From: a virus
Taxonomy: Duplodnaviria; Caudoviricetes
Reading direction: 5' to 3' (one strand)
Length of the DNA stretch: 64,000 bases
Virus record (IMG/VR): IMGVR_UViG_3300021375_000006
Notes under the pieces: model-generated
Database searches by the model: none
Seen by the model: only the letters and a program-made list of their open reading frames with translations
What the model was told of the DNA's origin: nothing
In this document: in pieces, positions 11,293 through 59,470 of the stretch
How the letters are laid out: every line of letters begins with the position of its first letter
How positions within the stretch are numbered: the stretch's first letter is position 1
Program-made: the position numbers and the translations under genes

Positions 11293-11325
11293 CTAATATA
11301 CGAAAAATAATTGACAACTAAAAAT
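11293..11325 (-). promoter_or_regulatory. early/host-type promoter (Bacteroidota -7 box TATATTAG with upstream TGTCA) driving the tRNA array
   Basis: TTGTCAATTATTTTTCGTATATTAGTAC. Near-identical copies at 13086, 13200 and 36206. Confidence 0.65.
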
Positions 11326-11349
11326 CTGGGGGCAATTAATTTGTTAAAA

Positions 11350-12390
11350 TTATGAAATTAAGTGTGGTTTGGCTTCTGCTAGTCCTGCGTTTGTAACTAC
11401 ATTATATTCTGCTCGATTAAAATATTCAAGTAGATCATTAGCTCCAGCGTATGAGAATGCTGATTTGATTCCATCGGTTAGTCCATTGATAATAAACCTA
11501 GCGCCACCTTTAAATGGAATTGTAGTAGACTCGCCTTCAACATTACGTTGCTTTTGAGCGTGTGTAATTTTAGTCTCTAAAGATGCAGAACCACGATAAC
11601 GTTTGAAAAGACCTGCTGGAGTTTCAAGAATGGCTCCTGGCGACTCCTTTGTACCTGCTAATAGTGAACCAACCATTACACAATCGGCACCCACTGCGAG
11701 CGCTTTTGCAATGTCTCCGGATGATTTAATACCACCGTCTGCCATGATGGGAATTCCAGCAGAATCTGCAACTTTAAATACATCTTCAATTGAGGTTACA
11801 TTAGGTACACCGAAACCGGTCTTAATACGAGTGGTACAAAGAGAACCTCCCCCAATACCAACTCGTAGACCATCAGCTCCCCAAGCAATCAGATCTTCTG
11901 CTGCTTCTGCCGTTGCGATATTACCGGCAATAACATCTGTAAACTCTTCCAGATTTGCCTTCAATTCAGCTAGAGCGACTTCCATATTGCCATGGTGGCC
12001 ATGCGCAACATCAACGAGTATGATATTACAACCTGCTTCTTCAAGTGCGACAGCGCGGTCCAGGTAGTCTCCTACGACGCCCACTGCTGCCATGATAGGT
12101 AGATGTGAAAGTACAATATCACTGTCTCTAAAAGCTACTAGTTTTTTAACCTGTGCTACTTGCTCTTCGATAGACATAAACCTATGAATACAGCCAACTC
12201 CACCCATTTCCATCAGTGTTGCTGCCATTTCATACTCAGTTACTGTGTCCATACATGAACCTACAATTGGAATATCAATTGACCAGTTTCTACTAACATT
12301 AACTGCTAGTGAGATATTCTGGCGTGTTGGGATGTCAGAAAAGTTAGGGATGAGTTGAATATCATCGTACGTTAGTGCTTGCTTTCGCAT
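11350..12390 (-). CDS. IMP dehydrogenase / GMP reductase family (no CBS domains)
   Basis: MDTVTE, DVAHGH, VIAGNIAT, GIGGGSLCTTR, IMADGGIKSSGDIAKALAVGADCVMVGSLLAGTKESPG. Confidence 0.9.
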   Translation of the reverse strand: MRKQALTYDDIQLIPNFSDIPTRQNISLAVNVSRNWSIDIPIVGSCMDTVTEYEMAATLMEMGGVGCIHRFMSIEEQVAQVKKLVAFRDSDIVLSHLPIMAAVGVVGDYLDRAVALEEAGCNIILVDVAHGHHGNMEVALAELKANLEEFTDVIAGNIATAEAAEDLIAWGADGLRVGIGGGSLCTTRIKTGFGVPNVTSIEDVFKVADSAGIPIMADGGIKSSGDIAKALAVGADCVMVGSLLAGTKESPGAILETPAGLFKRYRGSASLETKITHAQKQRNVEGESTTIPFKGGARFIINGLTDGIKSAFSYAGANDLLEYFNRAEYNVVTNAGLAEAKPHLIS

Positions 12391-12452
12391 TTTGTTTTTA
12401 ATTTAAAAGGTAAGAATTTGATAGTTATACTATGATTATCTGTGTTTGTTTC

Positions 12453-13049
12453 TTAAACTTTACCAGCAATTATAGCTTTTCCTCTACGAATTCTATTTTT
12501 GATAGTCTGAAGAGGTAAGTCATACTTTTTAGCAATGTCTTCATATTTCATATTGTTAAGTAGCCTATCTTCTAGAATACCTTTGTACATTGGCTTAAGA
12601 GTTTCAATACCTTTAAGAGCTTGTTCGTATCTATTCATTAGCTCGTCATCTTCATCAATCCAATCTTGCTCAGATTTATATTCCATTTCAACAAGTAGAT
12701 CCTTTGCAGAAGTTCTAGCATAATACCTAGATACTTCTATTCCACTATCTTGAAGTGCATCAATAGATCTTTTTTTGTTTCTTTGGCGAATCCAGCCTAG
12801 ACATTCATTGAATGCAATTCTGTAAAGCCATGTTGTGATTTGATATTGTGGATCGTATTGGTCTATTTTAGTCCACATTTTAGTAAGTGTATTTGTGACA
12901 ATGTCATCTTTAGCATCATTGTCTTTGACTACGTTAAAGACATAGTTCTCTAAGCCTGGTTTTATTTTATCATATAAGACTTTGTAGTCTTTTTCTGATC
13001 TGGATTTTGTAAAATTTTCTGCTAGTTCGCGATAGGATTTTTTAGACAT
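12453..13049 (-). CDS. ECF-type RNA polymerase sigma factor
   Basis: Region 2: KDDIVTNTLTKMW...YDPQYQITTWLYRIAFNECLGWIRQR. Region 4 HTH: MKYEDIAKKYDLPLQTIKNRIRRGK. Confidence 0.92.
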   Translation of the reverse strand: MSKKSYRELAENFTKSRSEKDYKVLYDKIKPGLENYVFNVVKDNDAKDDIVTNTLTKMWTKIDQYDPQYQITTWLYRIAFNECLGWIRQRNKKRSIDALQDSGIEVSRYYARTSAKDLLVEMEYKSEQDWIDEDDELMNRYEQALKGIETLKPMYKGILEDRLLNNMKYEDIAKKYDLPLQTIKNRIRRGKAIIAGKV

Positions 13050-13085
13050 ATATGCTTTTTTAGGTTAAACTTCTTAATAACTGTA

Positions 13086-13118
13086 CTAATATAATAAAAA
13101 TAACTGATATAAAAAAAT
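13086..13118 (-). promoter_or_regulatory. early/host-type promoter upstream of the ECF sigma gene
   Basis: TATCAGTTATTTTTATTATATTAGTAC. Confidence 0.6.
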
Positions 13119-13199
13119 GTTTTTGCAATTATTTTGTAATTAGTTTGTCTGTTAGTAGTATTATTACATGCTTTTTCGCAAACTTACATAATTACAGTA

Positions 13200-13232
13200 C
13201 AAATATACGAAAAAAAACTGACATAAAAAAAT
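13200..13232 (-). promoter_or_regulatory. second early/host-type promoter (exact TAnnTTTG)
   Basis: TGTCAGTTTTTTTTCGTATATTTGTAC. Confidence 0.65.
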
Positions 13233-13268
13233 ATTATGGCAGTTATTTTGTAAAAGTTATTAACAATT

Positions 13269-14816: not shown

Positions 14817-14852
14817 TTTAATAAAAATTTAATCTAATTTATATATTGTTTT

Positions 14853-15326: not shown

Positions 15327-15471
15327 AGTTCTTATACTGATTCTTTAGTTTTTGTTTTGTTTTTTATTGATTTAATAGCTAATGAAGCCACGAGTGCCAT
15401 AGCTGTGATGTTAAGTGCATTAGGATGCCAGTGTTCTCCACAAAATCCCATTGCATGGTAGATTAATTCTG

Positions 15472-17870: not shown

Positions 17871-17913
17871 AATAAACTGATTTAGTTATTATAGAGAATT
17901 AGCGGGACTTGTT

Positions 17914-18459
17914 TCAATCTTTTGGCCAAAGTGCCTCTTTAATATTATCAGCTAAATTAGGTCCATGCTTGAATGCATCGATTTCCCATTTACGGTCTGG
18001 ATAGTTTATCTCAGTAATATCATAGATTGTATCACCTTTCCAAACTACTGCTTTGCCACCTAGGGTTTTTAACCAATTCATCTCATATTGTTGTAGATGA
18101 ATTAACTCATGTGCAATCGTGTTGATTGCTGTAGATCTGCTAATCCCCTTTTTTACGAAAATAGCATACTGATCGCCGTTCGTTTTAATATAGGCATCAG
18201 TTTCATAGTCACCTCCAAGCGATTGAGCTTGGTCTTGATTTCTAATAACCACTACCACATTACTAATCGACAGTCTGTCTAGACCAACCTGAACAATCGT
18301 GTCGAGGTAAGCCTTCTTGTGTAGATTAAATACTGCGTTACGGTTATTGAACTCGTAGTTTTCAAATTTGCGCTCTGGACGCGAAGCTAGATAAATGATT
18401 AGAGCTATAACTAATAGAACTATTACACCTATCCAGTGTTTAGTCTTCATATTCGCCAT
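17914..18459 (-). CDS. membrane-anchored HExxH metallopeptidase-like protein
   Basis: N-terminal TM helix. AHELIHLQQY...WEIDAF. Confidence 0.6.
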   Translation of the reverse strand: MANMKTKHWIGVIVLLVIALIIYLASRPERKFENYEFNNRNAVFNLHKKAYLDTIVQVGLDRLSISNVVVVIRNQDQAQSLGGDYETDAYIKTNGDQYAIFVKKGISRSTAINTIAHELIHLQQYEMNWLKTLGGKAVVWKGDTIYDITEINYPDRKWEIDAFKHGPNLADNIKEALWPKD

Positions 18460-20185: not shown

Positions 20186-20228
20186 AAAATATAATTTATG
20201 ACTTATATCTGATACTTAGTAAAAGTTT

Positions 20229-23200
20229 CTAACCTAATGCGTCGATATTCTTAATTTTAACACCGCTTGAAGTAAGTGCCTTATTAAGTTGCTTAATTGC
20301 AGATATTACTCCAGAGTTATCTCCACCAGAAGAACTTGAACCGCCGCCGGTAAATGCTGATTTAAGACTACCCATTGCGTTAGATATTGCATTACCAGAA
20401 TCTGCAGTTGCCGTCATACCATCACCTACTGTAGTTTTAAATTCACTTAACATATCTGCTAGATTTTGTAGAGCCTGTTCAAGAGATTCTCCCATCGCAG
20501 CAAGTATATCAGTTGGTTCTCCGCCTTCTGAAAGTACGCCAAGTGCTTCAAACATTTTTCTAGTCTCAACAAGTTTATCAAGATCCATCGCATTAATTGC
20601 ACCACTAATCTCTGGCATTGAATCTCCCATTCTAACAGTATTAGCACCAATTGTAGCCCATAACGTAGCCTGTTTAGCATAGCCCTCTGCTCTAGATTTT
20701 TCATCAACTGGACCTACAAATGCTCCAAAGAACAATTTACCTTTTTCTGGATCGAATGTATTAATTGCTGATATAATACCTGGAACGGAATTACCCATTT
20801 TCTCAAAAGTATTTCCAACAGCAGAAATCATCCATCTTTGTTCTTTAATAGTTTGCGCATCTGTCCCCTGGTCTACATTAGTAAATACTCCAATAATATC
20901 TGCCATTTTACCAGCAAACGCTTTAGAGTCCATATTACCTACTATTTCAATAATGGTTTTTACAGATTCACCTAATTTCTTATATGGCTCGCCAATCATA
21001 CTAACAATTTCAATACCCTTTTCAAAAGTGGTTTCGCCTTGCCACCACGATGATGTTTTAGCCTTGCCACTACCAATTACCATAAGAGTATCTGTTAGAG
21101 CCTCGATTAACATTTGAGTATTGGTTTGTATCTTTGCTTTCAGGCCTTCTGCATTTCCAATAGTCTGATAACCAGTAATTTTACCGTCTTTATCGTAAAT
21201 AGGGAACCTTAACTTGGCCATAGCTTCTACACCTTTCGCTAGGTTTAATAGAGGCTCACCAATACCTGTTACAATTGCAATACCTTTTTCAATAGTGGAT
21301 TTACCACCCCACCATGAACCATCATTTGCATCTGGATTTTTACCAATTTGAGCAAAAGTACCGGAAAGTGAACCGACTAACATTTGAGTATTATTAGCAA
21401 CTGCTTGAGCATCTTCTACACTAAATTGTCTATAGCCTGTAGCTTTACCTTCTTTATCAAAACCCGTTGGGAATTTAAGCATCGCCATATCTTGTACACC
21501 ACCTGCAATATTACTTAGGGCTTGTCCCATATTCATTACAGATTCAATACCCATTTGAACAGCACCGCCACCTGATAAGAAGCCTAATAGACCGCCTGAA
21601 CTTGGTCTACCAAAATCAACTGTCATTGGATTACCATCCGGGCCAATAACTTCTTGTTCACCACCCATTCCAATCTTAGCGAAAGGAACTGCAAGCGAAC
21701 CAACCATCATCATTGTATTTTTAACTACGTTCTTAAATGCATCACCACCAATAGTCTCAAATTTTGTTGGGTTACCTTCTTTATCAAAACCAATTGGGAA
21801 TCTAAGGTTGGCCATAGCCTGAACACCTTTAGCAATACCTGTAAGTGCCCTACCCATATTCATGGTTGACGCAACACCTATTGCAACTGTATTCTTTTTA
21901 CCTAAGCCAAATAAGCCGCCACCGCCGCCTCCAAATTTAACTTTAGTAATTGTACCGTCTGCGCCTAGAACTTCCATCTCTTCACCAGCACCAATTTTAT
22001 GGAATGGTACTGCTAATGTACCTAACATTAACGAGATATTTTTACCTAATACTGGTAAATCAAGTCCATCATTTTGTAGTTTAGCAAATCTTTTAAGACC
22101 AAGACCAACTGTCATTAAAGCAACACCTGCTGCAACCATTGCACCTGAACCTAATAAGATACCTGCTGCTGTCCATGGCCACATAACAAATGCATCACCA
22201 ATTGCTTTAAAGACAGGTACTAAACCAGTATCTTCATCGGTTAGTTTATCAATATTACCACCAGATAAAACTTTAGCCATAACAGCGATACCTGCTCCTA
22301 CTGCTAGTAAAGCAACACCTGCAACTATCATTGCTCCAGCCCCTAATGCAATAAACGCTGGAATTGGTCCTGCTCCTGCAATACCGAAGACTACACCTAG
22401 ACCACCAATCAGGGCCATCGTGGCGCCAATCATTGGCCAAGGATTTGAACCTAATGCTGCTGTAATAATTTTAAAACCTATTCCTATAACTATTAAGGAT
22501 GCTCCGACAAGTATCATCGCGATAGCTCCTTTCTTAATAAATTGTTCACCAAGGCCAATTACTGCAAACGCAGCTGCTAATAGACCTATTACTAAGAGTG
22601 CTCCTAAACTTTTCGCAGCCTCTTCACCAGTAATATTGCCAATTATTTTACCAAAGAATAGAAGTGAAAGACCTAATACGATAATGGATAAAGAAACCCA
22701 TAATAATGATTTTGCTCCGTTTTCAATATAATCACTTGCAAAGCCGACTAATGCGAACGCGAGTCCAATTGCAATTACAGTACCAACAACCATTAATATC
22801 GTACTAATGTTTGGCATAAGTAATTGGAATAGAGCTAAAGAAACACCTAATGCTAAAATTGATAGACCGGCCATTACAAGCCCTTTACCAGCTTTTTCCA
22901 TGTTATCTATAACACCAAACTCTTCTAATACATAAAATGCTAATGCAATTGCACCAATTACAAATATTGATAAGATAGCACCTTTAATCGCAGCACCTGC
23001 AATTAAACTAACTAGTGCAAATGTAACTGATAATGCTAATAGACCTAATGCAACGCCTAGAACGGCATCACCCATGGTTTTCATTTTATCTAATACTTTA
23101 TCTGGAATTATAGATGCAATTAATCCAATAGTACCTATTAATAAAACACTTACTAAAGCTCCCTTGAGTGCAGATTTTGAAATTAAGGTAACTAATGCTA

Positions 23201-23780
23201 AGGTGGCTGCTAATATCAGTATTGATTTACCGACATCTCCCATCATTTTAACCTTCTCTAGCTTTTCTTGATCTAAATTCTTAGTACCAAAATTAATACC
23301 TGCTACAAGCGCCCTTAATGTAAGTGCTATGAGTGGAGTACCTATTACTGCCACCATTAATAATGGGGTGGCTAATACCATATATCCAGCAAACTTTAGT
23401 ATTGATTTACCAACATCTCCTAGTAGAGTAATACCTGCTGCTAAGCCTTCCATTTTGGCTTTAACATCTTCTCCAGTATCTTCTAGATTATTTACAGCGT
23501 CTACAACAAATTGCAAACCTTTACCAAGAGGTTCCATGGAAGGTGCTAGCATTGCAATTGCCATGGCATTCCCTAGACCTCCGCCTACGCTCTTACCCTT
23601 TCCGTCTCTAATGTCTTCAATGGCAGTGGCCATAGCGTCCATTCTATCATAGAATTCACCACCTACTGCTAATGATACTGCAGTATTTTCAGTATTAACT
23701 GCTATTTGACCTAGAACATTACCCTGGCTACCTAACTTGTCGAAGGCGCCAGCTAACGATTTCATGAAATTTTGAGCCAT
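20229..23780 (-). CDS. tail tape measure protein
   Basis: 1183 aa, Ala/Gly-rich amphipathic and hydrophobic helical repeats. Located after the tube and chaperone genes. Confidence 0.8.
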   Translation of the reverse strand: MAQNFMKSLAGAFDKLGSQGNVLGQIAVNTENTAVSLAVGGEFYDRMDAMATAIEDIRDGKGKSVGGGLGNAMAIAMLAPSMEPLGKGLQFVVDAVNNLEDTGEDVKAKMEGLAAGITLLGDVGKSILKFAGYMVLATPLLMVAVIGTPLIALTLRALVAGINFGTKNLDQEKLEKVKMMGDVGKSILILAATLALVTLISKSALKGALVSVLLIGTIGLIASIIPDKVLDKMKTMGDAVLGVALGLLALSVTFALVSLIAGAAIKGAILSIFVIGAIALAFYVLEEFGVIDNMEKAGKGLVMAGLSILALGVSLALFQLLMPNISTILMVVGTVIAIGLAFALVGFASDYIENGAKSLLWVSLSIIVLGLSLLFFGKIIGNITGEEAAKSLGALLVIGLLAAAFAVIGLGEQFIKKGAIAMILVGASLIVIGIGFKIITAALGSNPWPMIGATMALIGGLGVVFGIAGAGPIPAFIALGAGAMIVAGVALLAVGAGIAVMAKVLSGGNIDKLTDEDTGLVPVFKAIGDAFVMWPWTAAGILLGSGAMVAAGVALMTVGLGLKRFAKLQNDGLDLPVLGKNISLMLGTLAVPFHKIGAGEEMEVLGADGTITKVKFGGGGGGLFGLGKKNTVAIGVASTMNMGRALTGIAKGVQAMANLRFPIGFDKEGNPTKFETIGGDAFKNVVKNTMMMVGSLAVPFAKIGMGGEQEVIGPDGNPMTVDFGRPSSGGLLGFLSGGGAVQMGIESVMNMGQALSNIAGGVQDMAMLKFPTGFDKEGKATGYRQFSVEDAQAVANNTQMLVGSLSGTFAQIGKNPDANDGSWWGGKSTIEKGIAIVTGIGEPLLNLAKGVEAMAKLRFPIYDKDGKITGYQTIGNAEGLKAKIQTNTQMLIEALTDTLMVIGSGKAKTSSWWQGETTFEKGIEIVSMIGEPYKKLGESVKTIIEIVGNMDSKAFAGKMADIIGVFTNVDQGTDAQTIKEQRWMISAVGNTFEKMGNSVPGIISAINTFDPEKGKLFFGAFVGPVDEKSRAEGYAKQATLWATIGANTVRMGDSMPEISGAINAMDLDKLVETRKMFEALGVLSEGGEPTDILAAMGESLEQALQNLADMLSEFKTTVGDGMTATADSGNAISNAMGSLKSAFTGGGSSSSGGDNSGVISAIKQLNKALTSSGVKIKNIDALG

Positions 23781-23862
23781 GTATAAGTACCGCTGATTAT
23801 TTTTTAGTATACAGGAACACCACTGTAAAAAGTGGTGCTCCTTATTACTATATTATATATCT

Positions 23863-25987: not shown

Positions 25988-26026
25988 ATCTTTTATTTCT
26001 TATTTTATTTATATATCGTTGTTTTA

Positions 26027-28879: not shown

Positions 28880-28936
28880 AATCTTTTAGTTATTATTTTT
28901 TATTCTTTTATTATATATCCTTGTCTTTCTGCAAAT

Positions 28937-31432: not shown

Positions 31433-31492
31433 AATATAATATTATATTCTATATATCTAGAAAATTTTATAGCAAAATTTAATGATAAAAAA

Positions 31493-33658: not shown

Positions 33659-34327
33659 TTATATATCTGACTCCCAATCGGTGATTAAAAGCATTTCAGG
33701 ATTATCTTGTTCATGGTGTTCTAATGCGTGAATAAATGCATTAGTTACACCTAAAGTTTCAACTGTATTATTCTCAGATTGAAATAAATCTAAAGACTCT
33801 AAAAAGTCTTTTACTCTAAATATACTAAACTTATCTCCTTCTTTTAAAAGACCAGCTCTTACTAATATAGAATTAGATAAATGTAATTCGTGCATATTAA
33901 ATAGATCAAACATACGAATACTTCCTCGTAGTGTTTTAATATCATATTTAATAGTCTTAGCTTGATCTACTGTTACAATTCTATTATAGCTAGAATTTTT
34001 ATTTAGATTAACTTTAATATATTTTAGGTTTGGCATAGTATCAAAAATCTGCCAAATAAAATAAATTGATGTAGCCTCTTTATGTATGTTTATACCACTA
34101 ACAGATTTGAATCTATTAACATCTTTCTTAAAACCATATTCTAAATATTGGAGCATACGGTTTTTACTAACTAATACTACGTCATCATTAGTTTTTTTTA
34201 CCTCACTATCTCTATTTAATATACCCCATAATTTAATATCTATTGAGTTATATTTGTAAAGAGTAATGTCTATGATCTCTGTAAAATAGTCTTCAACTTT
34301 TTGCATAAACTTGTATCTGTTCTTCAA
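33659..34327 (-). CDS. hypothetical protein
   Basis: 222-aa ORF from the track. Confidence 0.7.
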   Translation of the reverse strand: MKNRYKFMQKVEDYFTEIIDITLYKYNSIDIKLWGILNRDSEVKKTNDDVVLVSKNRMLQYLEYGFKKDVNRFKSVSGINIHKEATSIYFIWQIFDTMPNLKYIKVNLNKNSSYNRIVTVDQAKTIKYDIKTLRGSIRMFDLFNMHELHLSNSILVRAGLLKEGDKFSIFRVKDFLESLDLFQSENNTVETLGVTNAFIHALEHHEQDNPEMLLITDWESDI

Positions 34328-34724: not shown

Positions 34725-34753
34725 GTTTATTATATGTTAATAAGTGGTAAAGT

Positions 34754-34912
34754 TTACTTACACCACTCGAGGAATGCCATATTATATGCTTCCTCATAAG
34801 AATATCCTTCTTTTAAAAGTTTATTAGCCCATTTAGTAACTTCGGCTTTTAAGCCATAAGCATTGGCTTCAGCTAGAATTTCTTCAATTAATAAATGTTC
34901 ATCTAAAGTCAT
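34754..34912 (-). CDS. small hypothetical protein (52 aa)
   Basis: MTLDEHLLIEEILAEANAYGLKAEVTKWANKLLKEGYSYEEAYNMAFLEWCK. TAATG coupling. Confidence 0.6.
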   Translation of the reverse strand: MTLDEHLLIEEILAEANAYGLKAEVTKWANKLLKEGYSYEEAYNMAFLEWCK

Positions 34913-36177: not shown

Positions 36178-36253
36178 ATCTTATGTTTGTTATGCTTTTC
36201 TAGTACTAATATACGAAAAATATCTGACATAGAAAAATTATTTAACACTTTTT

Positions 36254-37228
36254 TTAGCCTTTAATTATTCCTTGTATCTCATAAACACAACTTAACATTG
36301 TGATTACGGGATCTATTACATGAACTCTCTGCTGTTGGTGTTTAGCTACAGAAATAATGATCTGTGGGATATGCTTAACCGATTGCAATTGTTCTTGTTG
36401 TATATATTCTACAAACTCTTCGCCTAACGATTGTAGAATATCATCGACTCTATTAGAATAATTACTAACTAGTAGTTGATAGTTTTTAGCTGGATCTGTC
36501 TCGTTAAAGATTAATTCAAATACATCTTTATAGACTGAGTTAAATCGCTTTACGTCACCAACTGTGATATTATTTGTACCTTGAGTTTTAAACCCTTGTA
36601 GTTTGTTAAGCGTAGATCTAAGATCTGGGAAGTTACGCCTAACAAATTCTACTAGAGCATCTTTCTCAATTGTCATTTCTTCCTGTTTACAAATATCATA
36701 TACTCTACGAATATACTTCTTTGTTAACTCGGTCTCCTCTTCTTTATCAAAGTCAAAGTTAATAACTTCAAATCTAGATAGGATTGGGTCTGGTAATTTA
36801 TTAATATAATTACATGTTGCAATAAATCTTGAGTTACTTGCAAATGTTTCCATTGTTGCACGAAGTGCTTTAAAGAACTGATCTGATACACCATCAACCT
36901 CATCTAGGATAACCACCTTAAACATCCCAGGCTCATCCATAATTGAGACTGTAGAACAAAAATCTGTAATTCTAGTTCTAATTACATCTACAGAGGTATC
37001 TGTGGACGCGTTAATGTACAGATAAGGCAATCCAAACTGATTGACAATGGCTTTTGCAGTAGAGGTCTTACCTGTTCCTGGTGAGCCTGCAAATAGCATA
37101 TTCTGGACTAGTCCGTCTTTGAACTTATTCATTACTGCATCAGGCAGTATTAGTTCTTCTAAATTTTTTGGCCGATACTTTTCGGTAAAGAGTTGGTTTA
37201 TTGATTGCATACAACTTTGTTTAGTCAT
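36254..37228 (-). CDS. clamp loader large subunit (gp44/RFC AAA+)
   Basis: EKYRP, GSPGTGKT, ILDEVD, SRF, FPDLR. TGAAAC-N18-TATAAT at 37227-37256. Confidence 0.95.
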   Translation of the reverse strand: MTKQSCMQSINQLFTEKYRPKNLEELILPDAVMNKFKDGLVQNMLFAGSPGTGKTSTAKAIVNQFGLPYLYINASTDTSVDVIRTRITDFCSTVSIMDEPGMFKVVILDEVDGVSDQFFKALRATMETFASNSRFIATCNYINKLPDPILSRFEVINFDFDKEEETELTKKYIRRVYDICKQEEMTIEKDALVEFVRRNFPDLRSTLNKLQGFKTQGTNNITVGDVKRFNSVYKDVFELIFNETDPAKNYQLLVSNYSNRVDDILQSLGEEFVEYIQQEQLQSVKHIPQIIISVAKHQQQRVHVIDPVITMLSCVYEIQGIIKG

Positions 37229-37272
37229 TATAGTACCAGATGGCTAAAATGTTTCATAGATAAATATACTAT

Positions 37273-39684: not shown

Positions 39685-39735
39685 TTTTCAATATATGTGT
39701 TTGTCTATGTTTTATATATCTGGATGATTTTGCAT

Positions 39736-41176: not shown

Positions 41177-41283
41177 TTTGTTAAATTATTTTTTTAATGG
41201 TTTTGTTTAAGCGTTCATTTCTGAACTCGACTTGCTTGGAGTTTCTGCTTCTTACTCCTTTATCGTCGATTAATTATATATCT

Positions 41284-43644: not shown

Positions 43645-43705
43645 ATCTATGGTTTATCTATTTTTATTATATATCTTGTTGTATTATACAAATATCTTAA
43701 TATCT

Positions 43706-44062: not shown

Positions 44063-44095
44063 AATTTATATATCTCTTTTTCTGGCGAATCTAGG

Positions 44096-45691: not shown

Positions 45692-45720
45692 AATATAGTA
45701 TTATTTCTGTTTTATATATC

Positions 45721-46317
45721 TCATTTATTTAGGTGGTTTCTGAAGGCTGCTCTAATCTTACCAACTGATGAGTTGTTTAACTCTAAAAAGTCGCATAATG
45801 CTATTCTTGCCCAATGTTCATAAGATACCACTTGTTGTTGTGATTTACGACTAGCTTTATATTGTCTAATCGCAAAGTCAAATCCATAGCGTTGTAAAAA
45901 CGCCTTTGCACCTCTATAACTTAATGATAGTGGTGCTTGAGCTCTAGCGTTCTCTGCCTTAGCGCCACTAGTCTGCCCATTAATATATTGTTTGTATTGT
46001 TCGTATACAAAATCTAAAAGTTGTTCTTTGATAGGTACTGGTAACATGTTTAAATTAATACCCATATCATTACCTGAATCTGATGTGTCTAAAGCTAATA
46101 CTACTGGATTACTATCCCACCAAAATGCTGAAACTGGATTTTGGTATCTGAAAACATATATTTTTCCAGGTTCAAATCTTCGCATCGATCTAGCAACCGA
46201 TTGTACTCTTATAGATTTAGATGTACTTTGGAACCATTCTTCTGCAGCGGATGCAGCCCTTCTCTTTCCACCAGCTTCTTTACTTAATGCCCTTATGTCT
46301 TTTAATACTTGTCCCAT
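45721..46317 (-). CDS. DNA end protector (gp2-like)
   Basis: PGKIYVFRY...WWDSNPVV...GINLNMLP...AIRQY. Confidence 0.8.
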   Translation of the reverse strand: MGQVLKDIRALSKEAGGKRRAASAAEEWFQSTSKSIRVQSVARSMRRFEPGKIYVFRYQNPVSAFWWDSNPVVLALDTSDSGNDMGINLNMLPVPIKEQLLDFVYEQYKQYINGQTSGAKAENARAQAPLSLSYRGAKAFLQRYGFDFAIRQYKASRKSQQQVVSYEHWARIALCDFLELNNSSVGKIRAAFRNHLNK

Positions 46318-46796
46318 TACTTAAGAGTTTTTTCTGTTAGGACAATAAACCTCCAACCCCTATTTTCACACCATGCATTTGCATAGGCGTATTTGTCTCT
46401 ATTCTTAATATATTGTTCAGCTAAAAATTTATATGAATTAAGTGCCTTTTTAGATTTAGTTTTTGGGGGAAGTGGTTTCTTAATCTGGGCTTCTGGTTTT
46501 ATTTCAACCAACCACTCTACAGGGCCTTCATCGCCCTGGCCCTTTGTCTTCATATAGAAGTCTGGGTAGTACTTATGTTCTTTCTTGTCCATTGTAGACC
46601 TGTACTTAATCGTAACCGGCTCGCTGGACCACTTTAATACGTTATCTTTCGTATCGCACATAATCATAAACTTTCTTTCCCAAGAGGAACGATAAATGAT
46701 CGGAGTTGGTCCGATATATCTGTCAGGGTTTTCTGGGTTAAAATAGCCTTGTACAAATCCTGAGTTACTGCTTGGTTTTAAGTTCTTTATTGACAT
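46317..46796 (-). CDS. head completion nuclease (gp4-like, TnsA-type)
   Basis: GYFNPENPDRYIG...IIYRSSWERKF...WSSE...YYPDFY...EIKP...NRDK...WRFIVLTE. Confidence 0.9.
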   Translation of the reverse strand: MSIKNLKPSSNSGFVQGYFNPENPDRYIGPTPIIYRSSWERKFMIMCDTKDNVLKWSSEPVTIKYRSTMDKKEHKYYPDFYMKTKGQGDEGPVEWLVEIKPEAQIKKPLPPKTKSKKALNSYKFLAEQYIKNRDKYAYANAWCENRGWRFIVLTEKTLK

Positions 46797-47174
46797 TTAT
46801 ATGTTAAACATTCCGCCTTCCGAGCTACCGTTATTGGTATTAATCTTATCCATAGAAAGTGTATTTTTATATTTCTGTGGATGTAGTTTATTCCAACCCT
46901 TAGCGTAACCACGCTTTGCTATTTCTGTAAAATATGCAAATGCATTAGTATATTTAGGATTGAAGTTTCTCCAATACTTTAATAGGTCTAAAATAGCAAA
47001 TTGTAGACAATCATTTTTATCATCTGAATTTAGATATACTAATCTATTTATTGCTCTTTCAGCCAGAAGTATTAACATTTTCTCTGCGTCGGGCGTTAAC
47101 TTATCCGCCTCTTTTGAGAGAACAATTTGATCGTATAGATCCCTATTGTTTAAGTAATTCTTTTTTCTTGGCAC
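46797..47174 (-). CDS. late-transcription sigma factor (gp55-like, short)
   Basis: NYLNNRDL...YWRNFNPKYTNAFAYFTEIA. CGAAAC-N17-TATAAT at 47197-47225. Confidence 0.8.
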   Translation of the reverse strand: MPRKKNYLNNRDLYDQIVLSKEADKLTPDAEKMLILLAERAINRLVYLNSDDKNDCLQFAILDLLKYWRNFNPKYTNAFAYFTEIAKRGYAKGWNKLHPQKYKNTLSMDKINTNNGSSEGGMFNI

Positions 47175-47204
47175 GTTTCGTTCTAATTATTTACTAATTA
47201 TATG

Positions 47205-47237
47205 AAAAAAAGCCCATTTGTTTCGAAATGGGCTTTT
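47205..47237. terminator. intrinsic terminator overlapping the gp55 promoter spacer
   Basis: aaaaaaagcccattt-gtttcg-aaatgggctttt. Confidence 0.75.
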
Positions 47238-47265
47238 CTAAATTTAAAATTAAAATTTAAAACAA

Positions 47266-48453
47266 TTATACGTTGTCTTCTTGTGAAATATTAATCTTGT
47301 ACTTTTCTACTCTGAATGGTTTGTTCTCTATGAATACAGTTAAAATATCATTCTTACCTGCTTGATTAAATTCAACAGCATCAACTTTAACTTGCGCGTC
47401 TTCTGGTAAACCGTCAACCTCACCTTTTAAAGATGCAGTTACATAACCATCCTCAATACCTAATTGTTCTTCTTCTAAAACCTTTAAATCTGATTGGATT
47501 TTTTTAATTTCAGTTTCGATTAAATTATCTGCAGCTTTAATATCTGGTAATGTTCTATCAGCTTCTGCTAATCTACCTCTTTGGTCGAATAGGAAGGATA
47601 ACATTTCTTTGTATAGGTTAATATTATCATCTTTTACTTTACTAATACTAGCAGCAGCCTCTAATAAATCAGAAAACTGTTCAGTTATATCTGCACCGGT
47701 TTCGGTTGCAACATACTCAACAGCAGCATCTGCTAATAGTTGTTGGAATTTATCTAATTTAGTATCTTCGTTTACTCTATAAGTATACACTCTATTTTCT
47801 GCTCTCATTGCTAAAACTGTAACTTGACCAGACTTAGATTCTGTTAAGAAATCTAAAACCTTAAAAGTATCAAAGTTTTCTGAAGCTAATTGAAACATCT
47901 CTAAGACTGCTTTATCCTGGTATTTAATATAACCAACATTAAAAAATCTTTCTGATAATCTCTCTTCATTACCCATTGTCACTTCAATATTACCTGCAAA
48001 GAATTTACCTGATTCTTTGTTATATCTAAAGTTAATTGCAATTGAAGAAGATTTAGTCTCTTCTATTTTAGCTTGAGTAGCATCTAGTTCTTTGGTAACT
48101 TCTGTTAGAGCTTCACCCTTTTTACCAGCTAGTTTTAATTCTTTTGCTTTACCTTCTAAAAAGGAAGCAGTTTCATTTAATTCAGATAAAGTATCAAATG
48201 CTTCTACAGCACCCTCTTCTACTTTATTTAAAATTTGTTTTCTATTATAGTCATATAAAAAAGAGATGCCTTCGTTAGTAATTTCGAAAGACTTATTAGC
48301 AGCAACTAGGCTATTAAATAAATCATTAGTCTCATCAATCTTCTCAATATGATTGCCTGTAATTTTAAAGTTAGCACCTGCCGCATGAAATAGGAAACCT
48401 TGTCCTTGTTCTAAAATAGGCGATGTTAATTCTTTGTTTATTGAATTTGTCAT
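47266..48453 (-). CDS. hypothetical protein (late promoter at 48480)
   Basis: 395-aa ORF from the track. Confidence 0.75.
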   Translation of the reverse strand: MTNSINKELTSPILEQGQGFLFHAAGANFKITGNHIEKIDETNDLFNSLVAANKSFEITNEGISFLYDYNRKQILNKVEEGAVEAFDTLSELNETASFLEGKAKELKLAGKKGEALTEVTKELDATQAKIEETKSSSIAINFRYNKESGKFFAGNIEVTMGNEERLSERFFNVGYIKYQDKAVLEMFQLASENFDTFKVLDFLTESKSGQVTVLAMRAENRVYTYRVNEDTKLDKFQQLLADAAVEYVATETGADITEQFSDLLEAAASISKVKDDNINLYKEMLSFLFDQRGRLAEADRTLPDIKAADNLIETEIKKIQSDLKVLEEEQLGIEDGYVTASLKGEVDGLPEDAQVKVDAVEFNQAGKNDILTVFIENKPFRVEKYKINISQEDNV

Positions 48454-48478: not shown

Positions 48479-49537
48479 CTATATATCATCCAAATTTCCT
48501 TTCACAGTGAAGTTATCACCGAAGAGCGCTGAGTTAGGCTCATCCTTAGGTGGGACGACTGTATTACTATTTCCAATTGTAAACATTCTATTCGATTGTT
48601 TCTTACGTCTAGATACTCTCTTAATCTGAGTTTCTGTATTTTGTAGATTACCTAAAGTGGCTGCTACTGCTGGATCTGAGCAACTTAAACCATCTTCAAC
48701 TTTTATCCATTCAATACCGTTTGATTCCCATTTAGCAGGATAATAACTATCATAATAAACGTTAGGTGTAAAACCTGGATCGATAAATCCATTTGGATTT
48801 TCATAATCACCACATACAGCATTTGCATAATTAGTTCTTGTATACTTTCTATAAGTATCTTCTTCAAAATCAAATGAAGGTATAAACGAATTAATTTCTA
48901 AGCTAAATGTTATTTTATGGTTTGCTTTATCATCAAATGAATATTCAATTGGACGTTCTTGTGTATAATCTTCTGGCATCATATACTCAGATGAGATTCT
49001 ATAAGTACCCTCTTCTAAATGTCCAGCATCTACATGATAAAAATTAGCCTTATACATTTTTTTAACAATAGCCTCTGTAACTTTAAATAGATCTAACTGA
49101 CTTGATACTAAAATCTCAATATCGACTCCTAATACTACTGGAATCATTTCAAACTCAGCGACGAAGCCTTCCATTAAACCCTGCTCATTCATCATTGAGT
49201 ATTGACCCATATTTCTTTTATTAACTAGCTTAGAAGGGTCTACATTAAATGATGTTAGATTTACAATACCTCTTGGGATTTTATCATAATTACCATCTGC
49301 GAATTCACCATCTGGATCACAGCCTAATCCATTGACATTAGAGAATAAGAAATTATCTTTCATAAAATTCTCATCACCAGAAACTGCGTAAAAGAATGGT
49401 ACATCTACCTCGACTCTCTCATCATTACTAATCTGTCTCCAAAAGCTTAATTTGCTATTGAGGTCTGCTAATAGTCCGACAACAACATGTCTAATAACTG
49501 AGTCGTCTTTATTAAATTTTAAATTATATGTAGCCAT
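48479..49537 (-). CDS. tail sheath stabiliser / tail completion (gp15-like)
   Basis: IRHVVVGLLADLN...VDVPFFY...IPRGIV...MIPV...QLDLFKV..I. Confidence 0.65.
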   Translation of the reverse strand: MATYNLKFNKDDSVIRHVVVGLLADLNSKLSFWRQISNDERVEVDVPFFYAVSGDENFMKDNFLFSNVNGLGCDPDGEFADGNYDKIPRGIVNLTSFNVDPSKLVNKRNMGQYSMMNEQGLMEGFVAEFEMIPVVLGVDIEILVSSQLDLFKVTEAIVKKMYKANFYHVDAGHLEEGTYRISSEYMMPEDYTQERPIEYSFDDKANHKITFSLEINSFIPSFDFEEDTYRKYTRTNYANAVCGDYENPNGFIDPGFTPNVYYDSYYPAKWESNGIEWIKVEDGLSCSDPAVAATLGNLQNTETQIKRVSRRKKQSNRMFTIGNSNTVVPPKDEPNSALFGDNFTVKGNLDDI

Positions 49538-49565
49538 AGATTATATATCAACCTTTACTGGTAAC

Positions 49566-49618: not shown

Positions 49619-50416
49619 TTAATATTCAGTGTCGCCACCATTACATACCGCACCGGTTTCTTCTGCATTCCAGGCAGGAACTACATCACCGATTGGAGAA
49701 GGTGTTACGTCAACCATTCCAGCTTCAGATTGAGCTAAAGAACATATCTGCCTTGATTGTCCAGCACCAAGTGGTGAAGAAGCTGACGCTGTTGTTGGAT
49801 TTGCAATATCAGCTTGTTGTAGTGGATAATAGTTATACAGTACAGGATCTCCACTTTCGTTAACTAGTTGCCAAATTCTACCAGCGTAACTTGCAATTGT
49901 AGTTGTTGGTTCTGCTACTGTAAAGTTAGTGTAATAGTCTAGGTTACTATCTGCCCAAGTTTTCCACGTAGCAGCATCCTTGCCGGAAGGCATTGACCCG
50001 TTATTAAGTACATTTCCTGCGCTTTCATTTTTGTCCTTAATATGTTGAATTGCTGCAACAAAAGCATCATCACCAGTTCCAGCTTTAAATCTAATATACG
50101 CGTCGTTTACTTCTAACTGAGGTTGATCCGCATTATCAGGCGGAGGTGTAGGTTGTGTACCTGTTGTTGTAGATAATTGAGGTTGTCCTTCATTATTACA
50201 AATTAAATATGCTATGTGCCATGCAAATCCTTCTCTAGCTTCATTTATCCCGTTAATCCAATAAGAATCAGTTAATCCTGAATAAACATTAGATTCTGCT
50301 TGTTGGTTAGCACGAATTAATCTATTATTAGGCCCGTAGGCTGTATAATTTGAAGGTGCTGAATGAACGGTACCTGTGAAAACAGACCATATTCTTGAAT
50401 TGGTGTTGGTAGCCAT
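49619..50416 (-). CDS. hypothetical protein, probably virion-associated
   Basis: 265-aa ORF with its own GATATATA at 50445 and a downstream terminator. Confidence 0.7.
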   Translation of the reverse strand: MATNTNSRIWSVFTGTVHSAPSNYTAYGPNNRLIRANQQAESNVYSGLTDSYWINGINEAREGFAWHIAYLICNNEGQPQLSTTTGTQPTPPPDNADQPQLEVNDAYIRFKAGTGDDAFVAAIQHIKDKNESAGNVLNNGSMPSGKDAATWKTWADSNLDYYTNFTVAEPTTTIASYAGRIWQLVNESGDPVLYNYYPLQQADIANPTTASASSPLGAGQSRQICSLAQSEAGMVDVTPSPIGDVVPAWNAEETGAVCNGGDTEY

Positions 50417-50456
50417 AATTAGTTTTTAATCTTTTTTGTTTTATTATATATCCCTG

Positions 50457-55011: not shown

Positions 55012-55025
55012 ATTATTGTTTTTAC

Positions 55026-55604: not shown

Positions 55605-55903
55605 AATTCAAATGGGTTTATTATTATTTTAAAGGCCTCTTTACCGGGGTCTTCGTTCGTTTGTTCGCATAAACCCAAAGTTACTAATTCTTTTGCAGAT
55701 TCTAAAATTTTATCTGGATCTGATTCTGGGAATCTATAAGTTTTTAATGCGTGGTAGGTAAAGCTACCTTTATATCTGTCAGGATTTCTATTGCAGAGTT
55801 TTACTTCAGCTTGTAAAATATCTAGCGCCGTAGGATAATCTGGTAAATCTTTTTCTATCCCTAGGATATACTTGATCGGCAGTTTATCTTTATTCAACTT
55901 CAT
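55601..55903 (-). CDS. hypothetical protein
   Basis: 100-aa ORF from the track. Confidence 0.7.
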   Translation of the reverse strand: MKLNKDKLPIKYILGIEKDLPDYPTALDILQAEVKLCNRNPDRYKGSFTYHALKTYRFPESDPDKILESAKELVTLGLCEQTNEDPGKEAFKIIINPFEL

Positions 55904-57005: not shown

Positions 57006-57049
57006 TATATTCTTTTTGTTTATTGTTATATGTGGAAAGACTAAATTGT

Positions 57050-57250
57050 TTAGAGTACGTTATCTTCTCCAAACTCAGCTTTTTCTTTTGCTCTAAGTTT
57101 TTCCAATTCTTCTAAGTAGTATTTAGCCTTTCCGCTTAATACTCTAATTTGATCTTGGACATCAGCAAGTCCATGTAAGATTCTTTGATATTCTCTTACA
57201 TATTCTTGTTGATCTTCTGGTAAGTCTTCTATGTTAATCTTGCTGTCCAT
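57050..57250 (-). CDS. hypothetical coiled-coil protein
   Basis: 66-aa ORF from the track. Confidence 0.65.
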   Translation of the reverse strand: MDSKINIEDLPEDQQEYVREYQRILHGLADVQDQIRVLSGKAKYYLEELEKLRAKEKAEFGEDNVL

Positions 57251-57459
57251 TAGTCCTCTGCTCTCCTCGCCACCTTATCAATATCTGTATCTTCTATTAT
57301 TTCCTCATCTGGAAATTCTATCTTTAATTGATTAGGATTGGCTTGAGTTTTTTTCTGTGCCCAGTAGAACTCTCTTACTTTTTCACCTAATTCCATATCA
57401 TTAGGGTGTTGTTCTGCTAAAGCCATGATTTGTCTAAATTTGTGATATGTTCCGTCCAT
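57250..57459 (-). CDS. small protein, paralogue of 31493..31657
   Basis: MDGTYHKFRQIM...PNDMELGEKVREFY. Confidence 0.7.
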   Translation of the reverse strand: MDGTYHKFRQIMALAEQHPNDMELGEKVREFYWAQKKTQANPNQLKIEFPDEEIIEDTDIDKVARRAED

Positions 57460-57463
57460 AATT

Positions 57464-58672
57464 TTAAAATAATGCTGATGCGTAGATCAGGTTAGTGTCT
57501 AATGTTTGTAGTCCAATTGCTTTTAATACTCTATTAAGTGGATCTATCATACATTTTTCAAATTGTGTATCAAAATCAACTTGTGGTGCAATCTCATAAG
57601 GATGTTCACCGGGTAGATATGCATAAACTTCTGAGATTGGTGTTTTACAGTTGTAAATTTTTAACTTCTCACCATTACCAATTACTTTATACTTATTCTT
57701 ATATTTTTGATTTTGATTTAAAATATAATTATAGTAGCCAGCTGCTTTTACGTTAGCTGGACATTTTAGTCCTACTTGAAATTCAATTTGATCGTCGACA
57801 ATATACTTTTCAATATTATTAGTTCTACGATTAAATGAAATGTCATCGACATCTGCTAGTTGAAATTCTTTTTTAGATGCTTTCATAAATGCAACTAATT
57901 CTTGTAATTCTTCAGCACCGGGGGTTTTTTGTGATTTAAACAAAATCCTAAGTGCTTCTACTAATTTCTCTCTAGCAAATTTTGGAGTTGAGGATTGAAT
58001 AGTATCAAATCCAATAGTCTTTACTTTCTTTAGGGACTTATGTCTATCAGTAACTTCTAGCTTATCATCCCATGCAATGTTTTGAATATACTTTTTCTTA
58101 GACATCCAAATACCATTATATGCTAAAGATTCTAGTTCAAAGAATAAGAAGTTATCTGTGTTTCTAGTATCAGCATACTTCTTCATACATGCTGTAATAT
58201 AATCCTTAAGTCTAAATGCGTAGAATGCTAAGATAAACTCATCAATTGGTAGAGCTTTAGCGTCATCATTCCAAACAATAGTTTCATATAGATCTTGAAA
58301 CTGTACGTAACAAGAATCTGTATCAATATAGATTACTGCAGGCTTTTCAACTTTACCTTTTACTGTTAAGCCGAATTGCTCATGTACTTTAGTATCTTTA
58401 TGCCAAAACTCTTGACAATACTTATTTAAGATAGACTCAGAGTAGAGGATAGCATTTTTACCCTGTTTTGTAATAGACTCTGCAATATCTATATTAAAAA
58501 AGTGAAACCATTTGTTACCGAATGCACCGTAGATAGAGTTAAGAGTTAATTTTACTGCTTGTTCATAGGCAGTATATTTAGCAGACATCTGCTTGTAGTG
58601 GTCTACAAGCAGCCCTGCATCTTCTCTACTAAGTTGATCGATAGGTTTCTCAGTGAGTTTTGTTATATCCAT
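57464..58672 (-). CDS. family-B DNA polymerase, C-terminal half (fingers/palm/thumb)
   Basis: KLTLNSIYG (motif B), YIDTDS (motif C), KKKY. Lacks the exonuclease and motif A. Confidence 0.93.
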   Translation of the reverse strand: MDITKLTEKPIDQLSREDAGLLVDHYKQMSAKYTAYEQAVKLTLNSIYGAFGNKWFHFFNIDIAESITKQGKNAILYSESILNKYCQEFWHKDTKVHEQFGLTVKGKVEKPAVIYIDTDSCYVQFQDLYETIVWNDDAKALPIDEFILAFYAFRLKDYITACMKKYADTRNTDNFLFFELESLAYNGIWMSKKKYIQNIAWDDKLEVTDRHKSLKKVKTIGFDTIQSSTPKFAREKLVEALRILFKSQKTPGAEELQELVAFMKASKKEFQLADVDDISFNRRTNNIEKYIVDDQIEFQVGLKCPANVKAAGYYNYILNQNQKYKNKYKVIGNGEKLKIYNCKTPISEVYAYLPGEHPYEIAPQVDFDTQFEKCMIDPLNRVLKAIGLQTLDTNLIYASALF

Positions 58673-58673
58673 A

Positions 58674-59417
58674 TTAAGCCGTTTGGCAAGTAGATACTGT
58701 TAATAGTGTGTTTGATTCTGTAGATTGGAATACTAGCTTAGAGTCAGTAACGTGTACTTTTTGTTCTTCTCTATCTAATAGGTTTAAGTACTTTTTGTAA
58801 ACTGTTACTGTACCTTCTCCATTAGATTCTGGATTAATTACTGCATTAAATGATTTACCATTTACAGCAACACCTTTACCATTTGCCTTTACGCTAAATG
58901 TTTCTTCACTATCAAGTCCAAATAAGTTCTTTACTTTATTAATAGTATGTGTATCGATATTAAAGCTAAATTTAGTATTATCTACTGCGAAGATAGCGTC
59001 TTGTTGTGCTGGAGTTAAGTCTTTAAAACCTAATGAAGGTTCTGAACAAGCAAGAGTAATTTCTAATTCATCATTGTACATTCTTAAAGATGATGCGATT
59101 AACTCGCCCTCTTGTTCAATAAATTCTAACTCACCTTTAATAGCATCGCTTTCAAAGTGTTTAATAGCATCAATTACTTTTGAACCTTCAAAGAAGGCAA
59201 CTTTCATTTCTGCATCTGTGTCTGGCCATTCGCTTACTTGGAAAATCTTATCACAGGCTACAGAATGTGATTTTACTGCATCTCGTTGTGGAAGATAAAC
59301 CGCTGAGTGGATTTGGCCGTTTTGGATTTTCATATAGACAAAAGAGTCTATAAGCTTTACTCGGTTGATAAACCCAGTTAAAGCGTGTTGGTCAATTCGA
59401 TCAATTTGTAGTTTCAT
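58674..59417 (-). CDS. sliding clamp (gp45-like)
   Basis: 247 aa with a two-domain clamp-like size and pattern, next to the polymerase. TGAAAC-N17-TATAAT at 59441-59469. Confidence 0.65.
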   Translation of the reverse strand: MKLQIDRIDQHALTGFINRVKLIDSFVYMKIQNGQIHSAVYLPQRDAVKSHSVACDKIFQVSEWPDTDAEMKVAFFEGSKVIDAIKHFESDAIKGELEFIEQEGELIASSLRMYNDELEITLACSEPSLGFKDLTPAQQDAIFAVDNTKFSFNIDTHTINKVKNLFGLDSEETFSVKANGKGVAVNGKSFNAVINPESNGEGTVTVYKKYLNLLDREEQKVHVTDSKLVFQSTESNTLLTVSTCQTA

Positions 59418-59470
59418 CTAAATATATTTTTTGTTTGATTATTATACTGGTAAGTAACTAGTTGTTTCAT

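Follow-up and report, generated by a model that had tools for sequence, protein, structure and literature searches.

Three promoter classes and a proposed sigma-factor relay in jumbo T4-superfamily phages of marine Flavobacteriia

Three recurrent promoter motifs, each attached to its own set of genes, are present in a 64,000-nucleotide (nt) stretch of phage DNA (Caudoviricetes; IMG/VR record IMGVR_UViG_3300021375_000006; the whole stretch is referred to as the window) and in its relatives. They are reasonably well accounted for by a transcriptional relay that runs from the host primary sigma factor, sigma-A, to a phage sigma of the extracytoplasmic function (ECF) type and from there to a homologue of the T4 late sigma gp55. 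Bacteroidota possess an unusual primary sigma, and, to our knowledge, almost nothing is known about temporal gene control in their large lytic phages. In the proposed relay, a jumbo phage of the T4 superfamily infecting marine Flavobacteriia would use three promoter types, and for each of them the host core RNA polymerase would carry a sigma of its own. Class 1 promoters would be read at once by the unmodified host holoenzyme and would drive tRNAs, small early genes, RNase H, and the phage's own ECF-type sigma gene. The newly made sigma, with no anti-sigma partner encoded nearby, would then read class 2 promoters, tGAAAC-N17(18)-TATAAt, which serve replication, recombination, repair, and nucleotide genes together with the gp55 gene. 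In the last step gp55, probably acting with the sliding clamp, would read class 3, a single box GATATATA(A) located 5 to 100 nt ahead of virion genes and some other late genes.

Promoter classes in the window and its relatives

The first-pass annotation of the window had proposed three motif classes and listed plus-strand coordinates for them. All 27 of its sites are present; with all but a few genes on the minus strand, the motifs are read as reverse complements, and their counts far exceed chance. Compared with second-order Markov simulations of the window, GATATATA occurs 18 times (simulated mean 4.5, maximum 9), GAAAC-N17-TATAA seven times (mean 0.42), and TATATT[AT]GTAC four times (mean 0.22). 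Intergenic DNA, which makes up 7.5% of the window, holds 15, 5, and 4 of these copies, respectively, against expected values of 1.2, 0.07, and 0.03. Of the 18 GATATATA copies, 17 fall within intergenic DNA or on its border, each of them oriented toward the next gene. One-mismatch variants are nearly all intragenic (for GATATAT[CGT], none of 15 is intergenic); therefore, the exact octamer is under selection. Members of all three classes show strict sense orientation, stand 5 to 130 nt ahead of start codons, often follow terminators, and are divided by gene function. Several sites had escaped the first-pass list, namely class 3 boxes at 2497-2504(-), 2533-2540(+), 8231-8238(-), and 62522-62529(-), an intragenic class 3 copy at 5021-5028, the variant GATAAATA at 6714(+), 37259(+), and 9117(-), an N18 copy of class 2 at 12425-12452 before the GMP reductase gene, and a weak AAAAC copy at 15332-15358.

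The window sigma and gp55 proteins, used as queries, retrieved 159 related IMG/VR loci (2.26 Mb) whose sigma proteins are 99% to 56% identical to the query. These loci were analyzed with unbiased k-mer and spacing tests; an iterative search with long position weight matrices was discarded because it was overfitted and drifted to the gp55 site. Information profiles built from hundreds of unique sites give each class a distinct architecture. Class 1 is a tripartite cassette of approximately 57 bp (aAAATAAtTGC, TTTTTTtATGTCA, N11, TATATT(t/a)(a/g)c), class 2 is bipartite (ttGAAACaa, spacer, aTATAA), and class 3, profiled over 413 unique sites, is the single box GATATATAa with a flat upstream region and no -35 element, as in T4-type late promoters. 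Among all 1024 5-mers placed at N17 from TATAA, GAAAC ranks at the top (155 unique sites versus 7 in controls) and TAAAC second. The spacing is narrowly distributed, with 155 sites at N17, 65 at N18, 27 at N19, 17 at N24, and eight or fewer at most other distances from N12 to N23.

Each motif class stays with the same orthologues across related contigs (Table 1). Upstream regions of the sigma gene carry class 1 in 43 of 60 relatives and class 2 in only one, and those of the gp55 gene carry class 2 in 45 of 45. Thus, the two key links of the first-pass annotation, a class 1 sigma gene and a class 2 gp55 gene, hold throughout the family. Class 1 cassettes are located at the tRNAs, the sigma gene, and RNase H. 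The class 2 targets clamp loader, Fpg, UvsX, and gp55 were upheld, but the clamp call (58674-59417) is only probable; the gene calls for RNase H, gp44, Fpg, and UvsX were confirmed. Class 3 does precede the tube, sheath, capsid, portal, and protease genes, but it also precedes some non-virion genes. The median open reading frame (ORF) following a box increases from 116 amino acids (aa) for class 1 to 156 aa for class 2 and 251 aa for class 3, an order that fits early, middle, and late genes.

One relative, G002, is complete (256,444 bp, direct terminal repeats, CheckV completeness 100%), and its sigma is 64% identical to that of the window. It encodes a single Sigma70_r2 protein, the orthologue of the window sigma, in addition to gp55, and carries approximately 23 class 1, 42 class 2, and 54 class 3 boxes. 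No fourth promoter class was found in its intergenic gaps, where gaps without a strict match contain relaxed variants (AATATATA; TATATTTAC) or tRNAs. Consequently, the promoter classes equal the sigmas in number, the latter being host sigma-A, the ECF-type sigma, and gp55. Neither the AsiA family nor that of the MotA C-terminal domain (PF09010 and PF09158) is present in G002 or in three partial relatives, whereas T4 matched at E values of 2e-43 and 7e-71 in the same search. These results favor the earlier suggestion that a sigma relay takes the place of the MotA/AsiA mode. In other relatives, the sigma search gave weak, sub-threshold matches to ORFs of 127 to 135 aa, which are read as probable gp55 homologues. 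No phage with gp55 but without a second sigma occurs in the set, as PAU, PTm1, pT24, MA9V-2, and LR756500.1 all match the ECF/sigma70 model; co-occurrence is therefore judged at the level of orthologues only.

Assignment of sigma factors to promoter classes

The pairing of sigmas with promoter classes, and the order of the classes in time, are what we infer from these sequence patterns. For class 3, reading by gp55 is very probable, because a single AT-rich -10 box ahead of virion genes follows the rule established in T4. In that phage, late transcription depends on gp55 with gp33 and the gp45 clamp, and the late promoter is TATAAATA. The window system shares with it a gp55 homologue, a probable clamp, and a lone AT-rich box of 8 bp, with no -35 element, upstream of the genes for capsid, portal, sheath, tube, and protease. 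It differs in the box itself, GATATATA(A) with GATAAATA and AATATATA variants, in the lack of a detected gp33 homologue in the window, and in the placement of the gp55 gene under a class 2 promoter. The window gp55-like protein gives a weak region 2 match to TIGR02937, in keeping with a small sigma of the gp55 type, and its start codon is a conserved GTG or ATG in relatives. PAU and PTm1, whose gp55 proteins are divergent, use a different late box, TATACATA. Two late boxes (44067-44074 and 49542-49549) are so close to the annotated ATG that their transcripts would be leaderless, or else the true start codons would lie farther downstream.

Bacteroidota sigma-A reads TAnnTTTG at -12 to -5 and, optionally, TTTG at -33 (PMC9723704, PMC7366714, PMC2483708), the latter box being dispensable (PMC2483708, PMC7366714). 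The first-pass annotation had taken class 1 to be a host-type promoter, and the match to this -7 box agrees with it: the window holds one copy of TATATTTG, a perfect TAnnTTTG, and three of TATATTAG, and the family consensus is TATATTta, or TATATT(T/A)(G/A) when variants are included. A T-run at -36 to -30 stands at the right distance for the -33 box, with its G usually absent. Unlike typical sigma-A promoters, class 1 has the additional conserved elements ATGTCA and AAAATAAtTGC, and in its -7 box A frequently replaces the last G and the third T. A near-identical tripartite cassette, AAAATAgTTGC..TTTTCAtATGTCA-N11-TATATTTG, occurs in MA9V-2, including before that phage's own, different sigma gene. 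PTm1 shows the succession of terminator, TTTG, and TATATTTG, the last being its top intergenic 8-mer. A search with the window sigma found no match in MA9V-2 or PTm1, and by pairwise BLAST the sigmas of both phages are unrelated to it. Because these phages carry the architecture without this ECF sigma, the shared reader of class 1 must be the host enzyme. Reading of class 1 by host sigma-A is thus assigned with considerable confidence. The possibility that CGTA in class 1 is an ECF -10 box was also considered and dismissed, since the sequence is not conserved and has no AAC box 16 to 17 nt ahead of it.

The phage sigma consists of Pfam Sigma70_r2 (residues 25-91) and r4_2 (residues 145-192), without region 1 or 3. 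It scores 57.6 bits against the ECF superfamily model TIGR02937 (cut-off 42.9) and reaches no subfamily cut-off, and its best matches in the PDB are SigW and then sigma-E. Its gene is flanked by phosphoesterase and GMP reductase genes, with no anti-sigma gene adjoining; co-encoded anti-sigmas are common among ECF sigmas but not obligatory. The Bacillus subtilis SigW promoter is TGAAAC-N16-CGTA, with TGAAAC as its -35 box, and that of Escherichia coli sigma-E is GGAACTT-N16-TCnnA. Class 2 resembles these in its TGAAAC -35 box with an AAC core, and the recognition helix of the phage sigma, TIKNRIRRGK, resembles TVKTRIHRGR of SigW. In contrast to both, class 2 has a TATAA(T) -10 box and a spacer of 17 to 18 nt. 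The helix QT(I/V)KNRIxRG is invariant in the family down to 56% identity. It is kept in the orthologue of LR756500.1 (33% identity), a genome with 23 GAAAC-N17-TATAA sites versus 3 in its control; in Lak-A1, where the homologous helix reads STVKNYLYKG, there are 2 sites versus 8 in the control.

Class 2 is likely read by the phage ECF sigma. The case is made by elimination, as class 2 lacks the host box, and by the ECF-type -35 box with its AAC core, the similarity of the recognition helix to that of SigW, the nearest solved relative, the small covariation series of helix and motif (the family, LR756500.1, and Lak-A1), and the precedent of phiEco32 gp36. The latter is a phage ECF sigma that reads the TATA-like sequence tAATGTATAtA (PMC4281155). 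As in the proposed system, a promoter read by the host enzyme drives its gene, and the sigma then directs the host polymerase to a -10 box that is AT-rich and TATA-like; however, phiEco32 is a podovirus with a single-element motif for both middle and late genes, whereas here the motif has two parts, one of them a TGAAAC -35 box, and gp55 would provide a separate later step.

The class 2 promoter of the gp55 gene (47198-47250) is embedded in the intrinsic terminator of the upstream gene. Its -35 box forms the terminator loop, AAAGCCCATTT-CGAAAC-AAATGGGCTTTTTTT, and the T-run serves as spacer, an arrangement kept in all 45 distinct relatives examined. The stem shows compensatory substitutions (GCCCA..TGGGC versus GCCCG..CGGGC), with GAAAC and TATAA invariant. 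Before gp44, the class 2 -10 box overlaps the first ATG, so the gene may start at the ATG near 37210. The divergent regions 6661-6742 and 37229-37272 share a 22-nt block, AAAATGTTTCATnGATAAATATA. Read on the minus strand, this block provides the -35 box of class 2; read on the plus strand, it provides a GATAAATA late-like box to the few genes on that strand.

The upstream region of the sigma gene contains further structure. A hairpin of approximately 40 nt between its tandem class 1 promoters is kept in relatives L005, L008, L011, and L013; its stem covaries (UUUCUCAA/UUGAGAGA versus UUUGUUAG/CUAACAGA), and it holds the direct repeat ATGTAA-N13-ATGTAA. Farther upstream lies an inverted-repeat element, TTGTTAATAACTTTT, which also occurs ahead of the MA9V-2 sigma gene. 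These elements may be operators or stem-loops of the promoter early stem-loop (PeSL) type.

Alternative readings of the motifs

Several observations weigh against the relay as proposed. TATAAT, rather than a CGT-type sequence, is an unusual -10 box for an ECF sigma, and in Flavobacterium psychrophilum the sole ECF-type motif on record contains a CGT box (PMC9723704). The covariation of helix and motif comprises only three lineages. The genome-wide counts and the sigma inventory come from relatives. Class 3 boxes also precede the nrdB gene, a DUF2589 gene, and an exported module of the type IX secretion system (T9SS), and no match to the gp33 co-activator was found among the scanned proteins of unknown function in the 64-kb window. 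The strict one-sigma-one-motif reading is further weakened by PAU, which has 23 TGAAAC-N17-TATAAT and approximately 13 TGAAAC..TAGTACTAT sites, all sense-oriented before ORFs, and whose 362-aa sigma is not orthologous to that of the window; hence, the motif also occurs apart from this sigma lineage. It may be that two unrelated phage sigmas recognize the same sequence or that some common factor is involved. The PAU promoters, about 36 in number, are highly similar to one another, (G/T)AACTGAAACTTT..TTTCGTAGTATAAT or ..TAGTACTAT (JQ362498.1, loci L174-L184), and across the whole PAU genome there is no enrichment of host-type TAnnTTTG boxes ahead of genes.

Both the PAU case and the TATAAT box would suit a different reader of class 2, host sigma-A remodelled by unrecognized phage proteins that bind the GAAAC box, a form of appropriation resembling that of T4 but carried out by proteins unrelated to MotA/AsiA, in which the ECF-type sigma would serve few promoters or act in some other way. 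In addition, the majority of the small proteins of this phage have no known function. This reading is nonetheless unlikely, as class 2 does not have the TAnnTTTG box required by Bacteroidota sigma-A (PMC7366714), the complete relative has neither the AsiA nor the MotA family, the ECF sigma would have no fourth motif to read, and a spacing fixed at 17 nt is characteristic of sigmas with two domains. More doubtful still is that the phage borrows a stress regulon for its middle genes through one of the alternative, ECF-type sigmas common in Bacteroidota hosts. TGAAAC-type -35 boxes are indeed typical for cellular ECF sigmas, and PAU and this family have the motif in common but not the sigma; yet PTm1, MA9V-2, and Lak infect related hosts without the motif, the conserved phage sigma would be left without targets, and the gp55 gene with the entire late program would hang on a conditional host factor.

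The assignments could be swapped, so that class 1 is the self-activating promoter of the ECF sigma and class 2 the host-read early class. ECF sigma genes are commonly self-regulated, class 1 precedes the sigma gene, and many class 1 copies have CGTA directly before the TATATT box. Against this stand the lack of an AAC -35 box, the absence of CGTA conservation among relatives, the host consensus in the -7 box, and the scarcity of class 2 upstream of the sigma gene, which would be left without a host-read promoter. Since the cassette is shared with MA9V-2 and PTm1, which lack this sigma and so point to the host enzyme, the swap is largely ruled out and we regard it as very improbable. The repeats might, lastly, not be promoters in the main, with class 1 as recombination or mobility cassettes and the short boxes as AT-rich translation or packaging signals. 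The conservation of class 1 over approximately 57 bp exceeds promoter needs and recalls the PeSL shuffling cassettes (PMC4122927). However, PeSLs are themselves early promoters, and sense orientation, a position 5 to 130 nt before starts, frequent terminators ahead, and sorting by gene function make this the least credible reading of all. Like the PeSL cassettes of T4-type phages (PMC2839356, PMC4122927), class 1 is long, dispersed, near-identical between copies, often found beside a stem-loop, and placed at the head of small-gene islands, but it is built on the -7/-33 grammar of Bacteroidota instead of sigma70 -35/-10 elements.

Window gene content and comparison with known systems

Almost all of the approximately 70 genes in the window are on the minus strand. 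They include T4-type virion genes (gp23 capsid, gp20 portal, prohead protease, sheath, and large terminase), replication and repair genes (gp44 clamp loader, RNase H, UvsX, gp46/47, and a DnaB-like helicase), ribonucleotide reductase, and a split family-B DNA polymerase. One window protein bears a T9SS sorting domain, and the nearest GenBank relatives are LR756500.1, the Lak megaphages of Prevotella, PAU, the Tenacibaculum phages PTm1 and pT24, and the Chryseobacterium phage MA9V; together, these point to a member of the Bacteroidota as host. A megablast search with 20 kb of the window returned no match among GenBank phages, and among the records searched the nearest, G001, spans 33 kb and does not include the sigma gene.

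Table 1. Sigma genes, promoter boxes, and associated elements in the window, with the frequency of the same class upstream of orthologues.
Feature	Position	Strand	Downstream gene or remark	Orthologue upstream regions
Class 1 cassette CAAAtTAATTGC..TTTTTAGTTGTCA-N11-TATATTAGTAC	11290..11345	-	47 nt before tRNA-Leu	
Class 1 cassette, sigma-proximal	13083..13138	-	34 nt before sigma ATG	class 1 in 43/60
Class 1 cassette, sigma-distal	13197..13252	-	-7 box TATATTTG, perfect TAnnTTTG	
Class 1 cassette	36203..36258	-	26 nt before RNase H / 5'-3' exonuclease gene	
Conserved hairpin between tandem class 1 promoters	13100..13185	-	compensatory stem changes in relatives	
ECF-type sigma gene, 198 aa, regions 2 and 4 only	12453..13049	-	Pfam, TIGR02937, PDB match	class 1 43/60; class 2 1/60; class 3 0/60
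gp55-like late sigma gene, 125 aa, GTG start	46797..47174	-	phrog_234 late sigma transcription factor, E 2e-10	class 2 45/45
Class 2 GAAAC-N17-TATAA	6684..6710	-	DUF2589 gene 6130-6660	5/5
Class 2	8974..9000	-	small PspC-like ORF; ATG 5 nt past TATAAT	
Class 2, within tRNA array	10583..10609	-	ORF 10136-10552	
Class 2, N18 spacer	12425..12452	-	GMP reductase gene	11/13
Class 2, weak AAAAC variant	15332..15358	-	guanylate kinase gene	28/52
Class 2	17889..17915	-	Fpg/Nei glycosylase gene	
Class 2	20203..20229	-	KTSC-domain gene	24/26
Class 2, TAAAC variant	34730..34756	-	ORF 34293-34724	
Class 2, N18 spacer	37228..37255	-	gp44 clamp-loader gene	14/14
Class 2	47198..47224	-	gp55 gene	45/45
Class 2, TAAAC variant	57026..57052	-	UvsX gene	18/18
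Class 2	59442..59468	-	probable sliding-clamp gene 58674-59417	
Class 3 GATATATA	2497..2504	-	gene 1222-2424, divergent pair	
Class 3	2533..2540	+	T9SS-tagged gene 2607-4442	
Class 3	8231..8238	-	DUF2589 gene 7608-8195	5/5
Class 3	23854..23861	-	1183-aa gene 20229-23780	8/8
Class 3	26010..26017	-	tail tube gene	
Class 3	28912..28919	-	tail sheath gene	
Class 3	31450..31457	-	gene 30773-31432, upstream of large terminase gene	
Class 3	33660..33667	-	gene 31664-33628	
Class 3, after terminator	39713..39720	-	gene 37756-39684	11/11
Class 3	41275..41282	-	gp23 major capsid gene; 99-nt leader	
Class 3	43668..43675	-	prohead protease gene	35/35
Class 3	44067..44074	-	gene 43706-44062; 4 to 5 nt before ATG	
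Class 3	45713..45720	-	portal gene	44/44
Class 3	48480..48487	-	gene 47266-48453	46/46
Class 3	49542..49549	-	gp15-like gene; 4 to 5 nt before ATG	40/43
Class 3	50445..50452	-	gene 49619-50416	7/7
Class 3	62522..62529	-	nrdB gene (non-virion); 133 nt ahead	
GATAAATA variant	6714..6721	+	gene 6743-7549; back to back with class 2	
GATAAATA variant	37259..37266	+	gene 37273-37767; back to back with class 2	11/13

Other features of the window concern its gene arrangement. Two genes approximately 4 kb apart (62555-63961 and 57464-58672) encode separate pieces of the family-B DNA polymerase, one piece comprising the exonuclease domain and the N-terminal polymerase part and the other the C-terminal polymerase part, with nrdA, nrdB, and the probable clamp gene between them; separate pieces are also seen in the relatives PTm1, PAU, and MA9V-2. 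A TnsA-like endonuclease gene (46317-46796) without a promoter box of its own sits between the genes for gp55 and gp2, the DNA end protector, and its position is kept in 46 distinct relatives. The nominally intergenic stretch 8490-9112 holds several ORFs of fewer than 60 aa, among them a PspC-domain-like membrane peptide directly after a class 2 box and a CxxC zinc-ribbon peptide after a GATAAATA box. GC-rich structured spacers occur at 10770-10983, 11059-11156, and 59418-59557. Two of them lie inside the tRNA array, with tRNA-like arms not called by ARAGORN, and the third comes after nrdA; additional tRNAs of non-canonical form, or processing elements, may account for them.

The proposed relay is a variant on known phage sigma cascades, those of SPO1, phiEco32, and T4 late transcription. 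In the Bacillus phage SPO1, host sigma-A is followed by gp28 and then by gp33/gp34. As in SPO1, the host core polymerase would pass through three sigmas in turn, with each stage transcribing the sigma gene of the next, but the phage lineages and sigmas are unrelated, and here the middle sigma would be of the ECF type and the last a minimal gp55 of the T4 type. Compared with the MotA/AsiA mode of T4, class 2 occupies the same slot in the program (replication, recombination, nucleotide, and gp55 genes) and likewise joins a -10 box of the sigma70 type to a dedicated upstream element. It differs in having this element at -35 with a fixed 17-nt spacing and in the apparent use of a whole replacement sigma, AsiA and MotA being absent from the complete relative. 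T4-like jumbo phages that encode both minimal and fuller sigmas have been described (Iyer et al., PMC7824862), and a sigma is among the core genes of the aquatic 'moraphages' reported in 2025 (PMC12619734). Our literature search found no published description of these promoter classes or of the relay.

Taken as a whole, the evidence leans toward the view that widespread jumbo phages of marine Flavobacteriia have exchanged the MotA/AsiA mode for an ECF-type sigma reading TGAAAC and TATAAT, and that the gp55 -35 box in a terminator loop couples termination to re-initiation. The three motifs would provide a temporal annotation for hundreds of uncultured marine phage contigs, where the upstream box would assign any uncharacterized gene to the early, middle, or late set. 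If the ECF assignment is true, the T4 superfamily would have a second route to the middle stage, by a replacement sigma as opposed to sigma appropriation. The same assignment would also yield an orthogonal pair of sigma and promoter working on the Bacteroidota core polymerase, a useful genetic tool where standard promoters fail.

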